From contig CALDQM010000104.1 in the NCBI GenBank assembly GCA_937911225.1, positions 7,938 through 71,937 of the forward strand: 64,000 nt of DNA, in the 5' to 3' direction. How positions within the stretch are numbered: position 1 is the first letter of the stretch; the number at the start of each line of letters is the position of its first letter. Below, one piece after another: positions 3,394-27,475 of the stretch. This stretch comes from an uncultured Cellvibrionales bacterium (GTDB lineage: Bacteria; Pseudomonadota; Gammaproteobacteria; Pseudomonadales; Porticoccaceae). Under the pieces are notes generated by a model. That model was not told the DNA's origin and made no database searches. It saw only the letters and a program-made list of their open reading frames with translations. The position numbers and the translations under genes are program-made.

Positions 3394-4587
3394 TTATCGT
3401 AAAACTGTTAGCAGAGACTGTTTCAGATAAGCTATGTTGTTCGAATTAACGCCCGCTAAATTGATGCGCGTAGAGGATACGATGTAAATTCCAAACTCAT
3501 GCCGTAAACGCTCTAACTGCGGCGTAGAAATTCCCAAAAATGAGAACATCCCTTTTTGACGATTAATATGGCTGAAATCCATTCCAGCATCATTATCTTG
3601 AAGGCTATCGCACAGTAAGGCTCGCATAGCCTTAACACGAAGTCTAACTTCTTCAAGCTCTGCCTGCCACTGCCTGCGAAGATGTTCATCGCCCAGCACC
3701 ATTGAAACCAAAAGCGCACCATGAGCCGGTGGCATAGAGTAAATAGACCGCGCAGTTGCCATTGCTTGACTGACAACAACATCTGTTCGCTCAGGGCTCT
3801 CAGCTATAAACGTAACAGAACCGGTACGCTCCCGATAGAGACCGAAGTTTTTTGAACACGAGGATGCTATTACTAATTCAGGTAATCGCTCAGCCATCAT
3901 TCGCATGCCATAAGCATCTTCATCTAAACCGTCACCCAATCCCTGGTAAGCCGTATCAATAAACGGAATGAACCCTCTTTCAAGGGCGATATCAGCAATC
4001 TCATCCCATTGTTCGTGAGTCAGGTCCGCACCCGTCGGGTTGTGACAACAGCCATGCAGCAGAACCAGATCTCCAGCTGGCACTTTGCGCAGCGTGTCCA
4101 TCATTGCCTGAGTATTAATCTGACGACTAGCCATGTCATAGTAGGGGTATTGATTTATATCTAATCCGGCACTACCTAACAGAGGAATGTGGTTTGGCCA
4201 AGTCGGCATGCCAATCCATAGTTTGGATTCAGGACGTGCCTTTCGCACAACCTCGGCCGCTACTCGCAACGCACCGGATCCGCCGGGTGCTTGAATGCTC
4301 TTGACTCTTCCCGACTTCAGTATGCTGTGCTCTTCACCAAACAACAGTCCCATCATGCGCTGATTATATTCGGGATCACCAGCCATTCCTTGATAGGATT
4401 TAGTTGTCTCTAACTCCATTAGCCGTGACTCTGCTTCTTTGACAGCTGCCATCACCGGCGTTCGTCCATGGTCATCTTGATAAACTCCCACACCAAGATC
4501 AATTTTTTGGGTACGAACATCTGACTTGAAGGCGGCCATAAGACCGAGGATAGGATCGAGGGCGACGGGCTTTAAATTCTCAAACAT
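3394..4587 (-). CDS. Aromatic amino acid/aspartate aminotransferase (TyrB/AspC, class I PLP)
   Basis: DLGVGVY, PGGSGAL, LLHGCCHNPTGAD, SCSKNFGLYRERTG, SSTRINLAG. Confidence 0.93.
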   Translation of the reverse strand: MFENLKPVALDPILGLMAAFKSDVRTQKIDLGVGVYQDDHGRTPVMAAVKEAESRLMELETTKSYQGMAGDPEYNQRMMGLLFGEEHSILKSGRVKSIQAPGGSGALRVAAEVVRKARPESKLWIGMPTWPNHIPLLGSAGLDINQYPYYDMASRQINTQAMMDTLRKVPAGDLVLLHGCCHNPTGADLTHEQWDEIADIALERGFIPFIDTAYQGLGDGLDEDAYGMRMMAERLPELVIASSCSKNFGLYRERTGSVTFIAESPERTDVVVSQAMATARSIYSMPPAHGALLVSMVLGDEHLRRQWQAELEEVRLRVKAMRALLCDSLQDNDAGMDFSHINRQKGMFSFLGISTPQLERLRHEFGIYIVSSTRINLAGVNSNNIAYLKQSLLTVLR

Positions 4588-4648
4588 ATTGGGTGTCCTG
4601 GTAGTGTATTTTTAATAACAAGATTCTACTATGATTCAATCAATTTAT

Positions 4649-5416
4649 TCAGGGGGTGTTAATAAATGCAGCGACACTAGCATTAAATTCATCTGGCTTT
4701 TCAGCATGTAACCAATGGCCAACACCCGCCATCACATGAAGTTTATTATTCGGGAAAAGCTGGTCAATAGTTGGTCGGTGTTTAGTTTGAATATAGGCGG
4801 ATTTTTCACCTTTTATAAACAAGCTAAGCCCCTGGTATGGTTGGCCCTCTGGCGCGGCCACTAGAGTCGAACTATAGTTCGCTAAAATCGCCTGCATATT
4901 TAACTTTAATGAATAATTTCCATCGCCATTACGACTCAAATTTTTCAGTAAAAAAGCACGTGTTTGAGCATCAGGCACATACTTAGCAACCAACATATCC
5001 GCGTCAACCCGACTAAGGACATTTACTGAAGATAGCTCAGCTAAAGCGTCTAAAGCGGCATCTTGTCGAGCACCATAGGCAACTGGCGATATATCGGCAA
5101 CGATCAGCTTTGTTACTCTATTAGGGTAATTGAGTGCTACTTGCATCGCAACTTTTCCGCCCAGTGAGTGACCCACCAAACTCGCCTCTGACAATGCCAA
5201 GTCATCCATTAGCTGAACAATATCATTGGCCATTGACGGAATATCCATTATTGACTCATGCGGCGAATCACCATGGTTACGCAAATCAACACTGATGACT
5301 CTACAGTGGGTAGCGAGGTGTCTCGCCAAATTACCCAAATTTGAAAGGGAGCCGAACATACCATGCATAATGATTACCGCGTGCCCCTGACCCTGCTCAC
5401 TGAAATTTAGCTGCAT
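4649..5416 (-). CDS. Alpha/beta hydrolase, YbfF-like esterase
   Basis: HGMFGSLSN, VDLRNHGDS, nucleophile elbow GHSLGGK, GHWLHAEKP. Confidence 0.88.
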   Translation of the reverse strand: MQLNFSEQGQGHAVIIMHGMFGSLSNLGNLARHLATHCRVISVDLRNHGDSPHESIMDIPSMANDIVQLMDDLALSEASLVGHSLGGKVAMQVALNYPNRVTKLIVADISPVAYGARQDAALDALAELSSVNVLSRVDADMLVAKYVPDAQTRAFLLKNLSRNGDGNYSLKLNMQAILANYSSTLVAAPEGQPYQGLSLFIKGEKSAYIQTKHRPTIDQLFPNNKLHVMAGVGHWLHAEKPDEFNASVAAFINTP

Positions 5417-24151: not shown

Positions 24152-24673
24152 ATGAGTTTCTCCCCAAAGTCATCCTATTCTAGAGAAGAAATCTTGGGCG
24201 CCTCCCGAGGCGAGTTGTTTGGCCCAGACAATGCGAAATTACCCGCCCCTAATATGCTGATGATTGATCGAATTGTCGAAATCAATAATACTGGAGGCAA
24301 GAGTGGTCTCGGCCAGATAATTGCTGAAATCGATATTAGGCCAGATCTCTGGTTCTTTGATTGCCATTTTGAAGGTGACCCGGTAATGCCAGGCTGTTTG
24401 GGTTTGGATGCCCTATGGCAATTGGTTGGCTTCTTCTTAGTATGGAATGGTAATAATGGCAAAGGGCGGGCTCTTGGTGCTGGTGGTGTTAAATTCTTTG
24501 GACAGATACTACCAACTGCAAAAAAAGTGACCTACAAGCTTGATCTAACGCGATTGATTCAACGAAAGCTAGTAATGGGAATCGCCGATGGTTCAGTGGA
24601 AGTAGATGGAAGAGAAATCTACACTGCCAAAGATCTTAAAGTAGGTCTGTTTGCGAACACTGATAGTTTTTAA
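24152..24673 (+). CDS. fabA: 3-hydroxydecanoyl-ACP dehydratase/isomerase
   Basis: [45 protein letters not shown]. Confidence 0.97.
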
Positions 24674-24706
24674 TATGGACTCCAATAGAGTAGTACTCAA
24701 CGAGGA

Positions 24707-25927
24707 ATGCAGATGAGACGCGCAGTTATTACGGGTATGGGAATTGTCTCCTGCTTGGGAAATGATAAAACCACTGTTACAAACTCCTTAAGAAACGGTA
24801 TTTCAGGTATTCGCCGTAGAGAAGATTTTGCCGAGATGGGTCTCCGCTGTAACGTCGGAGGACTGATCGATCTAGATCCAAAAGATCATATTGATCGCAA
24901 AGTTTTGAGATTTATGGGCGATTCTGCCGCTTATGGCTACATCGCCGCAGATCGTGCTATTGCAGATGCCGGCCTGTCTGGTGAGATGGTCTCAAACCAC
25001 AGAACTGGCCTTATTATGGGCTCTGGCGGTCTGTCTGGTGAGATGTTTGTAGAGGCGGTTGATGTTATGCGTGCTCGTGGTATTAAGCGCGCAGGTCCTT
25101 ATCGCGTTACTCAAATTATGGCGAGCACAGTTTCTGCTTGTGTTGCCACCCCCCTTAAGATCAAAGGCGTCAATTATTCACTTTCATCTGCTTGTGCAAC
25201 CAGTGCTCACTGTATTGGTCACGCCGTAGAACTAATTCAGCTGGGTAAACAAGATGTACTCCTCGCTGGCGGTGCAGAAGAAATGCACTGGTCTATGGCT
25301 GCAATGTTTGATGCCATGGGAGCGCTCACTAGTAAATATAACGAGACTCCAGCAGTCGCTTCCCGCGCGTATGACGCCAATAGAGATGGCTTTGCGCCCT
25401 CTCTTGGTGGCGGCTGTGTTGTTGTTGAAGAACTCGAACACGCTCTCGCTCGAGGAGCTAACATTATCTGTGAAGTTACAGGGTACGGTGCAACATCTGA
25501 TGGCGCAGATATGGTATCGCCCTCTGGAGAAGGTGCCGAGCGCTGTATGAAGATGGCTATGGATACTGCGTCAGGGCCGATTGATTATATTAACACCCAT
25601 GGTACAAGCACGCCTGTGGGTGACGTTGCGGAACTTGGTGCTATTCGCAACACCTTTGGAGATAACTGTCCTGATATAAGCTCAACCAAGTCTCTTTCAG
25701 GGCACAGCTTGGGTGCTGCAGGGGTTCATGAAACGATTTATTGTATGCTAATGATGGAGAATAATTTTGTAGCTGGTTCTGCAAACATAGATACTCTAGA
25801 TGAGCATGCCAAAGGACTACCTATCGTGCTAAAAACTAAAGATACAGTGCTCAATCGAGTAATGTGCAACAGCTTTGGATTTGGCGGTACCAATGCCAGT
25901 TTGGTGTTAGAAAAGCTTAAGTTATAA
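24707..25927 (+). CDS. fabB: Beta-ketoacyl-ACP synthase I
   Basis: [49 protein letters not shown]; follows fabA. Confidence 0.96.
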
Positions 25928-26019
25928 TTTAGAATGAATGATTATAAACACCAGCTACTCTAAAACCCATATTCTCAGTCAGACTGCCGGTCGCCGCTTT
26001 TGAGATGTAAGAAGACCTT

Positions 26020-26349
26020 ATGTTAGAGAGCACGACGGCCGCCAACAAAACCTTCGCCAAAGATAGTTATAAACATCTACCTAAGTGTCTAACCATTAGA
26101 CACAGCAACATTGACGGGCTGAGTTTATTTGCGACTGAAGATATTCCAGGCGCGGTTTATCTGGGAGAGACTCACTTCAAAATTGATGCTGCCGAGGACT
26201 GGCTTAGAACACCGCTGGGAGGGTTTATTAATCACAGCGAGGTTAGTAACGCGAGTATCGAGTTACTAGACAATAATCTCAGAGGGCTAACCACGAAGAG
26301 GAATATATTAGAGGGTGAGGAGATCACTGTCACCTACACCCTCTACTAA
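26020..26349 (+). CDS. Minimal SET-domain protein (putative lysine methyltransferase)
   Basis: LTIRHSNIDGLSLFATEDI (motif I-like), RTPLGGFINHSEVSNA (NHS motif), TKRNILEGEEITVTY (GEEL-x-Y motif); no pre-SET or post-SET cysteines. Confidence 0.85.
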   Translation: MLESTTAANKTFAKDSYKHLPKCLTIRHSNIDGLSLFATEDIPGAVYLGETHFKIDAAEDWLRTPLGGFINHSEVSNASIELLDNNLRGLTTKRNILEGEEITVTYTLY

Positions 26350-26401
26350 ACGTCTAAAATCTGATTCACTGGGAGCATTAAACTCCCCGATGCAATCTCG
26401 C

Positions 26402-26878
26402 TTATAAAGCCGCTAAAATTGCTTCTGCGCTTGATCCTTCCAAAGCTGCTTGATCAACATTAAGCAGACTCACAACACCATCGTCAACGATCATAGCAAA
26501 GCGCTGACTGCGTGTTCCCATACCAAAGCCCGTTCCATCGAGCGTAAGCCCAATAGCTGTTGTAAAGTCAGCATTACCATCTGCTAACATCAACAAATGC
26601 TCTGCATTAGAAGCCTTACCCCAAGCATCAACAACAAACACATCATTCACCGACATACAGGCGACGGTATCAACACCCTTAGCTTTGATATCATCAACAT
26701 GAACAACAAACCCTGGCAGATGTGAAACAGAACAGGTGGGTGTAAATGCGCCTGGAACCGCAAACAAAACAACTTTTTTACCCTCAAAAATTTCTGAAGT
26801 ACTAATCCCCGTAGGTCCTTCTGCTCCCATAATAGTGAACATTCCTGCTGGAATCTTATCGCCTACTTTAATTGTCAT
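26402..26878 (-). CDS. Peroxiredoxin, Prx5 type
   Basis: AVPGAFTPTCSVSHLPGF, SVNDVFVVDAWG, RSQRFAMIVDDG. Confidence 0.95.
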   Translation of the reverse strand: MTIKVGDKIPAGMFTIMGAEGPTGISTSEIFEGKKVVLFAVPGAFTPTCSVSHLPGFVVHVDDIKAKGVDTVACMSVNDVFVVDAWGKASNAEHLLMLADGNADFTTAIGLTLDGTGFGMGTRSQRFAMIVDDGVVSLLNVDQAALEGSSAEAILAAL

Positions 26879-26971: not shown

Positions 26972-27475
26972 TTAGAACGGGATATCGTCATCAAAGCTGT
27001 CCATACCCTGAGGAGCTTGCTGCTGAGGTGCCTGCTGTTGACCACCCTGCGGCTTATTCTGAGCTGCTGGCTGTTGATATCCGCCCTGCTGCTGCTGAGG
27101 AGGCTGATAACCGCCACCTTGCCCGCCATCTTGACCGCCGCGACTATCAAGCATTTGCATCTCACTGGCGACAATTTCAGTCGTATATTGGTCCTGACCT
27201 TCTTTATTTTGCCATTTACGTGTACGCAGGGCACCCTCTACATAAAGCTTGGACCCTTTCTTGACATACTCACCAGCAATCTCAGCTAAACGATTAAAAA
27301 ATACTACCCTGTGCCACTCAGTTCTCTCTTGAGGTTCACCGCTGGTTTTATCTTTCCAAGACTCTGACGTTGCAATACTCAGGTTAGTGACAGCACCACC
27401 TGAAGGCATGAACCGAGTTTCTGGATCCTGACCGCAGTTACCCACGATGATAACTTTATTTACTCCGCGTGCCAT
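26972..27475 (-). CDS. ssb: Single-stranded DNA-binding protein
   Basis: [21 protein letters not shown], Gly/Gln-rich linker, C-terminal FDDDIPF. Confidence 0.98.

Follow-up and report, generated by a model that had tools for sequence, protein, structure and literature searches.

The window analysed here is a stretch of 64,000 nt from an uncultured Cellvibrionales bacterium of the genus labelled HTCC2207 (Porticoccaceae, "gamma proteobacterium HTCC2207"), which we take to be the SAR92 clade, and this stretch is abundant in marine metagenomes. An open reading frame of 109 codons, which begins with ATG and ends in the aa sequence GEEITVTYTLY followed by a stop codon, lies downstream of fabA and fabB and converges on prx and ssb. 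The features of the locus are listed in Table 1. All neighbours are housekeeping genes, and no phage genes are found around the chromosomal SET gene. The initial annotation, made from the letters alone, had placed a small SET-domain gene 92 bp after fabB with no obvious terminator in between; its placement, size and motifs were accurate at every point checked.

Table 1. Features of the fabA-ssb region, in window coordinates
Feature	Position	Strand	Evidence or remark
fabA, 3-hydroxyacyl-ACP dehydratase/isomerase	24152..24673	+	Pfam FabA, E 4.7e-48; heads the upstream operon
fabB, beta-ketoacyl-ACP synthase I	24707..25927	+	Pfam ketoacyl-synt, N and C domains; borders the insertion site on the left
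fabB-SET spacer, 92 bp	25928..26019	+	without intrinsic terminator
SET protein, 109 aa, putative SAM-dependent protein-lysine N-methyltransferase, phage type	26020..26349	+	Pfam, phrog_28741, AF2, Foldseek, dN/dS
Motif I, cofactor loop, G33-L34-S35	26116..26124	+	codon 35 polymorphic: AGT Ser, GGT Gly, ATT Ile
Block R63-T-P-L-G-G-F-I-N71-H72-S73, including SET motif III NH(S/C)	26206..26238	+	column conservation; alignment with vSET NHS and MLL INHS
Motif IV, G99-E-E-I-T-V-T-Y106, presumed catalytic Y106	26314..26337	+	alignment to vSET GEEITISY
Stable hairpin in last SET codons, GAGGGTG...CACCCTC	26309..26345	.	fold of 26290-26410, z -3.2
Weak hairpin GGGAG-N7-CTCCC in 52-bp SET/prx spacer	26371..26387	.	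folds z -1.9 (+), -2.3 (-)
prx, peroxiredoxin (Redoxin/AhpC-TSA)	26402..26878	-	Pfam Redoxin, E 2.4e-32; right flank, convergent with SET
ssb	26972..27475	-	ORF list and conserved synteny; next gene of the right flank

No terminator-like site was detected in the spacer between fabB and the SET gene, which folds about as well as shuffled sequence (z +0.87). The weak hairpin between the SET gene and prx has no adjacent T run and is not called a terminator here.

The translated aa sequence matches the Pfam SET family (PF00856) with 30.6 bits against a cutoff of 22.4, and a scan of the whole genome gave the same single match. The SET assignment, which had been made from motifs by eye, is therefore borne out by a profile match above cutoff. 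The alignment spans residues 66-106 only, which pair with model positions 62-104 and lie in the C-terminal half of the protein. No second domain was found in the Pfam search and no NCBIfam model matches the protein. The phage family phrog_28741 matches far more strongly and covers more of the chain, with residues 17-109 aligned to positions 3-96 of the 100 in the profile (E 7.5e-18). An AF2 model built from 20 homologues has a mean pLDDT of 82.4 and a pTM of 0.72. When this model was compared with the PDB by Foldseek, 194 structures matched at E<=1e-3, and the best 50 of the 194 are all SET enzymes (TM 0.54-0.68). Ranked first are 4rz0 (TM 0.68) and vSET 3kma (0.67), followed by the SET domains of MLL, SETD8, SUV420H and EZH2. 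Among predicted viral structures, SET proteins of uncultured Caudovirales and of giant viruses were matched. A search of PDB sequences with the single window sequence gave noise-level matches only; the match to vSET came with the family profile (E 1e-6), where residues 25-106 align with residues 7-105 of vSET, and the NHS and GEE(I/L)T--Y motifs are in register. The window protein is a stand-alone minimal SET domain without accessory domains, as had been proposed, and Pfam, AF2, Foldseek and the family profile agree on this.

Across homologues of 48-97% identity, Y17, G33, H52, the block R63-T-P-L-G-G-F69, E100, E101, T103 and Y106 are invariant, and G35, N71 and H72 are at least 90% conserved. 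Motif III, F69-I-N71-H72-S73, is invariant or nearly so and aligns with NHS of vSET and INHS of MLL. In motif I the family consensus is G33-L-G35, and the window carries the allele GLS. Three residues follow the presumed catalytic Y106. Close homologues of identical length number 33, and an exhaustive HMMER scan gave 620 representatives of clusters formed at 50% identity (E<=1e-3), most of them 95-130 aa long. The frame is not a chance one, because of these same-length homologues, the 620 cluster representatives, the invariant motif residues and the dN/dS values of 0.10-0.19 given below.

The order fabB-prx-ssb is conserved in all 38 genomes of the genus that were examined, and prx is present in 39 of 41 genus genomes. 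The distance between fabB and prx is about 60-470 bp in 35 of the 38, and about 2 kb, around a DUF885 gene, in the other three. The spacers fall into classes of about 60-90 bp (many lineages), 113-266 bp (others), 437-474 bp (with an intact SET gene) and 2.0-2.2 kb (with DUF885). In its short, empty form of 60 bp the junction is a bidirectional terminator, AAAAAAGGCGGCC-ATT-GGCCGCCTTTTTT, and this is absent from the genomes that bear the SET gene. In a tree of three flanking proteins from the 38 genomes, all carriers of the SET gene and all of its recognisable remnants fall in one clade of nine genomes (SH-aLRT 100). An HMM search of all fabB-prx spacers in six frames revealed no SET remnants outside of this clade. 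Spacers of intermediate length (113-256 bp) from outside the clade had been considered as older SET remnants, and this was rejected with a best six-frame E of about 1. Family-wide, among 201 Porticoccaceae genomes from 20 genera, the SET family is found in the HTCC2207 genus only, and it is absent from 24 other families of the order. Because the gene and its remnants are restricted to one nine-genome clade and are absent from the other genera and from these 24 families, the most parsimonious history is that the subclade gained it once, on its stem. The initial annotation had spoken of a gene fixed in a core region. The conserved synteny fabA-fabB|prx-ssb supports the core region; fixation does not hold, as the gene occupies the junction in just the one nine-genome subclade and has decayed there in at least six species.

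Searches of pooled genomes found an intact SET gene at fabB|prx in eight species, with 57-91% identity to the window protein, and a pseudogene or 3′ remnant at the same site in at least six species. One of these carries a pseudogene with an in-frame stop and the changes Y17C, W61C, F69W and N71Y. The fabB adjacent to this copy (G176; loci L053/L210), in which four invariant residues are altered, is 96% identical to that of the window; the copy is a recent pseudogene. Five species have 5′-truncated remnants of 266 bp or 129 bp in which the 3′ end only is kept. One species has a trace of a remnant, and one member of the clade has none. The 3′ end, where the hairpin of the last SET codons lies, survives in the remnants of G034, G003, G019 and G009, and the hairpin within the SET codons may be the reason why decayed copies always keep their 3′ ends. 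In G026 (L024) the trace, with codons that read like KKGE...TLF, now forms a perfect 17-bp hairpin with A5 on one side and T5 on the other (z -5.6), a new bidirectional terminator made from the 3′ end of the gene.

Other sequences are also found at this junction. A DUF885 gene of 612-634 aa (E 1.5e-172) lies there on the minus strand in G025 (L045), G004 (L046) and G031 (L047). Non-coding sequences of 417-431 bp are found in G061 and G033, and the 256-bp spacer of G020 looks repetitive. The fabB|prx junction is a recurrent insertion hotspot.

A second chromosomal SET site, seen in loci L051, L052 and L057 (the last being contig C51 of genome G189), lies beside a gene for a DUF2061 membrane protein and cysNC/cysD. 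Genome G189 has both copies, one at fabB|prx and one at the cysNC site, and the two group together in a tree of 153 sequences (SH-aLRT 93). This points to a duplication or a move of the gene within the genome; no mobile element is visible. Locus L051 comes from an Akkermansiaceae bin and L052 from a Rhodospirillaceae bin. A wider spread of the gene on the basis of these two was rejected, and both loci are probably mis-binned, because their cysNC-DUF2061 context matches that of the Porticoccaceae contig L057.

Pairwise Nei-Gojobori comparisons give a dN/dS of 0.10-0.19 for the SET gene, well below 1, against 0.01-0.02 for fabB, 0.02-0.04 for prx and values within 0.01-0.04 for ssb. In the comparison with the orthologue of 91% identity the value for SET is 0.17. 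The dS of the SET gene is similar to that of the flanking genes, and it accumulates non-synonymous changes about 5-10 times faster than the neighbours do; in the comparison with G063, for example, identity is 78% for SET against 97%. The low dN/dS together with a dS like that of the flanks shows that the SET gene has been inherited vertically under purifying selection and has diverged together with its neighbours.

The initial annotation had pointed to the reading GLS at motif I, in place of GxG, as a possible sign of altered activity. GLS is indeed present in the window, but it does not characterise the lineage, being one natural allele of a Gly/Ser/Ile polymorphism in which Gly is the family consensus. 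The nearest database variants have GLS or GLI at this position and somewhat more distant ones have the consensus GLG. Codon 35 is read as GGT, AGT or ATT in DNA assemblies, with Gly usually the major allele, and as Gly in RNA contigs. The changes 26122 A>G and 26123 G>T were found in DNA and RNA contigs. Within the population 13 SNPs are non-synonymous and 7 synonymous, and near-identical sequences include P0013, with a deletion of 16 aa that removes motif I, and the truncated P0028 and P0030. In several studies the metagenome assemblies run without a gap over fabB and prx, and exactly over positions 26020-26275 (SET codons 1-85) they break into alternative contigs of 60-140 nt. The 5′ two-thirds of the SET gene is a sharp hotspot of microdiversity between nearly invariant flanks.

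In many marine metatranscriptomes, 50-70% of the words sampled from the SET stretch are present. One RNA contig (X30, record 21) runs unbroken from position 24185 to 26068, that is through fabA and fabB into the first 49 bases of the SET gene, and another extends from the end of fabB through SET and prx into ssb. Expression of the gene, which had been named as a point to check, is suggested by contigs that cover it, although these are assembled from unstranded data and may contain DNA. Because there is no terminator before the SET gene and one RNA contig spans fabA-fabB into it, the gene is probably transcribed by read-through from fabAB.

A likeness to small SET proteins of marine phages had been proposed in the initial annotation, and database searches confirm it. 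Besides the match to phrog_28741, a tblastn search found relatives in the cultured pelagiphage Kolga (46.7% identity), in the cyanomyoviruses P-RSM6 and P-SSM7 (41-42%) and in a single-virus genome, all annotated as hypothetical, and at least 581 loci in IMG/VR encode a relative. Carriers of phrog_28741-type proteins are marine phages of unrelated hosts, among them SAR11, Prochlorococcus and many uncultured bacteria. The nearest homologues of the window protein are not viral: they are vertically inherited orthologues at the same site, and the phage relatives come next, with identities of at most 52%.

Protein trees were made from 153 sequences and, with more care, from 77; they are unrooted and have few columns. 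The ten Porticoccaceae SET proteins are monophyletic (UFBoot 96, SH-aLRT 75) and appear so in 98% of bootstrap trees. Their sister is the phage contig L124 (99/89), and the surrounding nodes consist mostly of viral contigs. Contig L124 comes from a true phage and encodes a T4-type large terminase, ParB_N, PAPS_reduct/DUF3440 and a primase-helicase-like protein. On it the SET gene lies within positions 4469-5318, after ParB_N and the PAPS-reductase/DUF3440 gene and before a GGACT/AIG2-like gene. The presence of a PAPS-reductase neighbour there and of the sulfate-activation genes cysDNC beside the second bacterial SET site is probably a coincidence.

The three flanking open reading frames on each side of the SET gene were clustered for 80 viral loci. 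The neighbourhoods differ between clades, some being near DNA polymerase or helicase genes, and no conserved partner or substrate gene emerged in the 80. In one viral clade of 12-13 contigs (e.g., L198, L191 and L177) the SET gene is located between putative large terminase-like and portal-like open reading frames, an unusual place for an accessory gene.

A separate and well supported clade comprises about 34 loci (L064-L115) from marine Flavobacteriaceae MAGs and SAGs, with proteins of about 125 aa and 35-42% identity. In one of these, L083 (positions 3983-4360), the SET gene is in a chromosomal context with M16 peptidases, a sodium/bile-acid-type symporter and GT9/GT4 glycosyltransferases. 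The clade appears to be another cellular lineage of the phage-type minimal SET, independent of the first. As these 34 loci are chromosomal, viruses are not the only carriers of the family.

Base composition was considered as a sign of foreign origin and was dropped, since the GC3 of the SET gene (0.52) exceeds the mean of the window (0.42 +/- 0.04), and its phage relatives are rich in AT (30-34% GC). With a composition unlike that of phages, any transfer must be old, and composition lends no support to a direction.

Taken together, the data point with reasonable though not full confidence to a putative minimal SET lysine methyltransferase that was acquired once from a phage at fabB|prx in one HTCC2207 subclade, has been kept by vertical descent under selection, and has been lost repeatedly. 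The ancestor of this one SAR92 subclade would have gained a single copy, most likely from a phage, by insertion into the convergent fabB|prx intergenic region, which elsewhere in the genus is the 60-bp bidirectional terminator. The SET gene would then have been left without an upstream terminator, riding on fabAB read-through, and vertical inheritance under purifying selection would have been accompanied by repeated loss through deletions that proceed 5′ to 3′. Because of this repeated 5′-to-3′ loss, the SET gene is a conditionally useful accessory gene and not a core gene.

At the protein level, catalytic activity as a lysine methyltransferase is inferred from the aa sequence. By homology, SAM would be bound in a pocket formed by motif I (G33-L-G/S35) and motif III (N71-H72), and the methyl group would pass to the epsilon-amine of a target lysine beside Y106 of motif IV. 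The target is most likely a broadly conserved, abundant bacterial protein, given that phages with very different hosts use the family and that no phage partner accompanies the chromosomal copy. By analogy with MC1-alpha and the chlamydial Hc1-like proteins, which are substrates of other prokaryotic SET enzymes, a small basic nucleic-acid-binding protein, for instance a nucleoid-associated or ribosomal one, is our best guess for the substrate.

A different reading of the window copy itself should be considered, i.e., that cofactor binding has been lost in the strain's KH/RH/GLS haplotype, which would make it a dead or dying enzyme of an otherwise functional family, on its way to the decay observed in sister species. 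The nearly invariant G35 is Ser in the window and Ile in the closest variants, the motif I deletion of P0013 and the truncated P0028 and P0030 belong to the near-identical population, and more SNPs within the population are non-synonymous than synonymous (13 vs 7). The stop and altered invariant residues in G176/L053, the 3′ remnants in five more species and the trace in G026 likewise show that decay does occur in this lineage. However, the frame in the window is intact and all other invariant residues are retained, the dN/dS against the 91%-identical orthologue is low, the gene is covered by RNA contigs, and GxG may tolerate a side chain at its second Gly. We regard a dead or dying enzyme in the window strain as rather unlikely.

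The direction of transfer was also weighed. The minimal SET could be an old bacterial gene that marine phages have taken up repeatedly, with the SAR92 copy obtained from another bacterium. The MAG-only Flavobacteriaceae clade with its 34 loci in ordinary chromosomal context is compatible with this, as are the composition of the SAR92 gene, which is not phage-like, and the unrooted tree. Against it, the SAR92 clade has a true phage contig as its sister (99/89), with mostly viral sequences at the next nodes, the gene is absent from the 19 other Porticoccaceae genera and from the 24 other families, and the family is very diverse among viruses (at least 581 loci; 620 clusters at 50% identity). Such a reverse route is distinctly unlikely in our judgement. 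Transfer from a phage to the ancestor of the SAR92 subclade is most likely, a direction drawn on an unrooted tree from the contrast between a narrow distribution in bacteria and a very broad diversity in viruses; phylogeny and distribution favour the viral source that the initial annotation had proposed. A phage gene, once acquired, need not have become a housekeeping regulator, and it might act in phage-host conflict, for example by superinfection exclusion or by the protective methylation of a host protein on which phages rely. The phage origin, patchy presence and repeated loss, the non-synonymous rate of 5-10 times that of the neighbours, the microdiversity hotspot in the 5′ half of the gene and the second chromosomal copy in G189 would all suit such a role, and so would the variable spot between conserved genes, which holds other cargo elsewhere (DUF885 in G025, G004 and G031). 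Opposed to this are a dN/dS well below 1, with no whole-gene sign of positive selection, the lack of a partner gene, and the PADLOC-DB 2.0 defence models, none of which matched the window protein, its L124 sister or a Flavobacteriaceae homologue at E<=0.01. Little probability is given to a role in conflict. The same low weight applies to a broader speculation, in which phage SET proteins methylate a universal bacterial protein for takeover or protection, and SAR92 and, independently, Flavobacteriaceae have domesticated them as an immunity-like or regulatory modification; the Gly/Ser/Ile alleles and the 5′ microdiversity would then reflect conflict and not decay. The preferred reading thus remains a single old acquisition from a phage, kept under selection and repeatedly lost.

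To our knowledge, SET lysine methyltransferases are well understood on eukaryotic histones, and their role in free-living bacteria and bacterial phages is essentially unknown. The locus described here is a clean natural experiment, with one dated insertion whose site is fixed, in a marine heterotroph that is abundant. Among close relatives the gene is found intact, polymorphic or pseudogenised, or the site is empty, and hundreds of phage homologues are available for comparison. Methyl-proteomics of carriers and non-carriers could show what a widespread phage enzyme modifies. A further lesson of the locus is that a foreign gene may take the place of a shared bidirectional terminator, be carried along by a housekeeping operon and, on decaying, give rise to a new terminator. 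New in these results are the single insertion of phage type, which can be dated and which displaced a shared terminator at a core operon junction, the vertical inheritance under selection with stepwise decay from the 5′ end of the SET gene, and the active-site-loop polymorphism that segregates in the ocean.

SET genes are already known from free-living bacteria (PMC3980110). Like the window protein, Go1-SET of Methanosarcina mazei and the chlamydial SET proteins are prokaryotic, but they are larger, and they are not among the close sequence relatives in any search made. Their substrates include small basic chromatin-like proteins, namely MC1-alpha and histone-like proteins (PMC3980110). No published study of minimal SET proteins of bacteriophages was found in the literature searched. 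Some uncultured phage proteins in UniProt are already labelled SET-domain, and one metagenome source lists a homologue as a "SET domain-containing protein". The closest counterparts in named phages are Kolga gp27, PSSM7_204 of P-SSM7 and CPXG_00131 of P-RSM6, all of the phrog_28741 type. These are similar in size to the window protein, with 41-47% identity over 85-93% of the length, and have RTPLGGFINHS and GEE-T--YT as it does; Kolga gp27 itself exceeds the Pfam SET cutoff. Their genes reside in lytic phage genomes, annotated as "hypothetical protein", whereas the window copy is chromosomal.

Among structures, the best match is PFL0690c of Plasmodium falciparum (4rz0), a compact SET core with a TM of 0.68 over 111 columns, and Set7 of S. 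pombe (5h6z), also a compact SET core, has a TM of 0.65. Both are eukaryotic with 20-22% identity, and the match is not meant to imply an evolutionary connection. vSET (A612L of Paramecium bursaria chlorella virus 1, 1n3j/3kma) is, like the phage homologues, a virus-borne stand-alone SET without pre-SET or post-SET regions. It comes from a eukaryotic virus, is a dimer and methylates histone H3K27; the identity of this substrate is not transferable because the bacterial host has no histones. The fold match to vSET (TM 0.67) is accompanied by a sequence identity of about 21%. With its 119 aa, the vSET chain exceeds the window protein by about 10 residues. The window family has about 16 fewer residues than vSET between the first beta-sheet and motif III, and 3 residues follow the catalytic Tyr in the window protein compared with about 14 in vSET, in which GEEITISY stops at residue 105. 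With these two shortened segments, the family is among the most compact SET cores.
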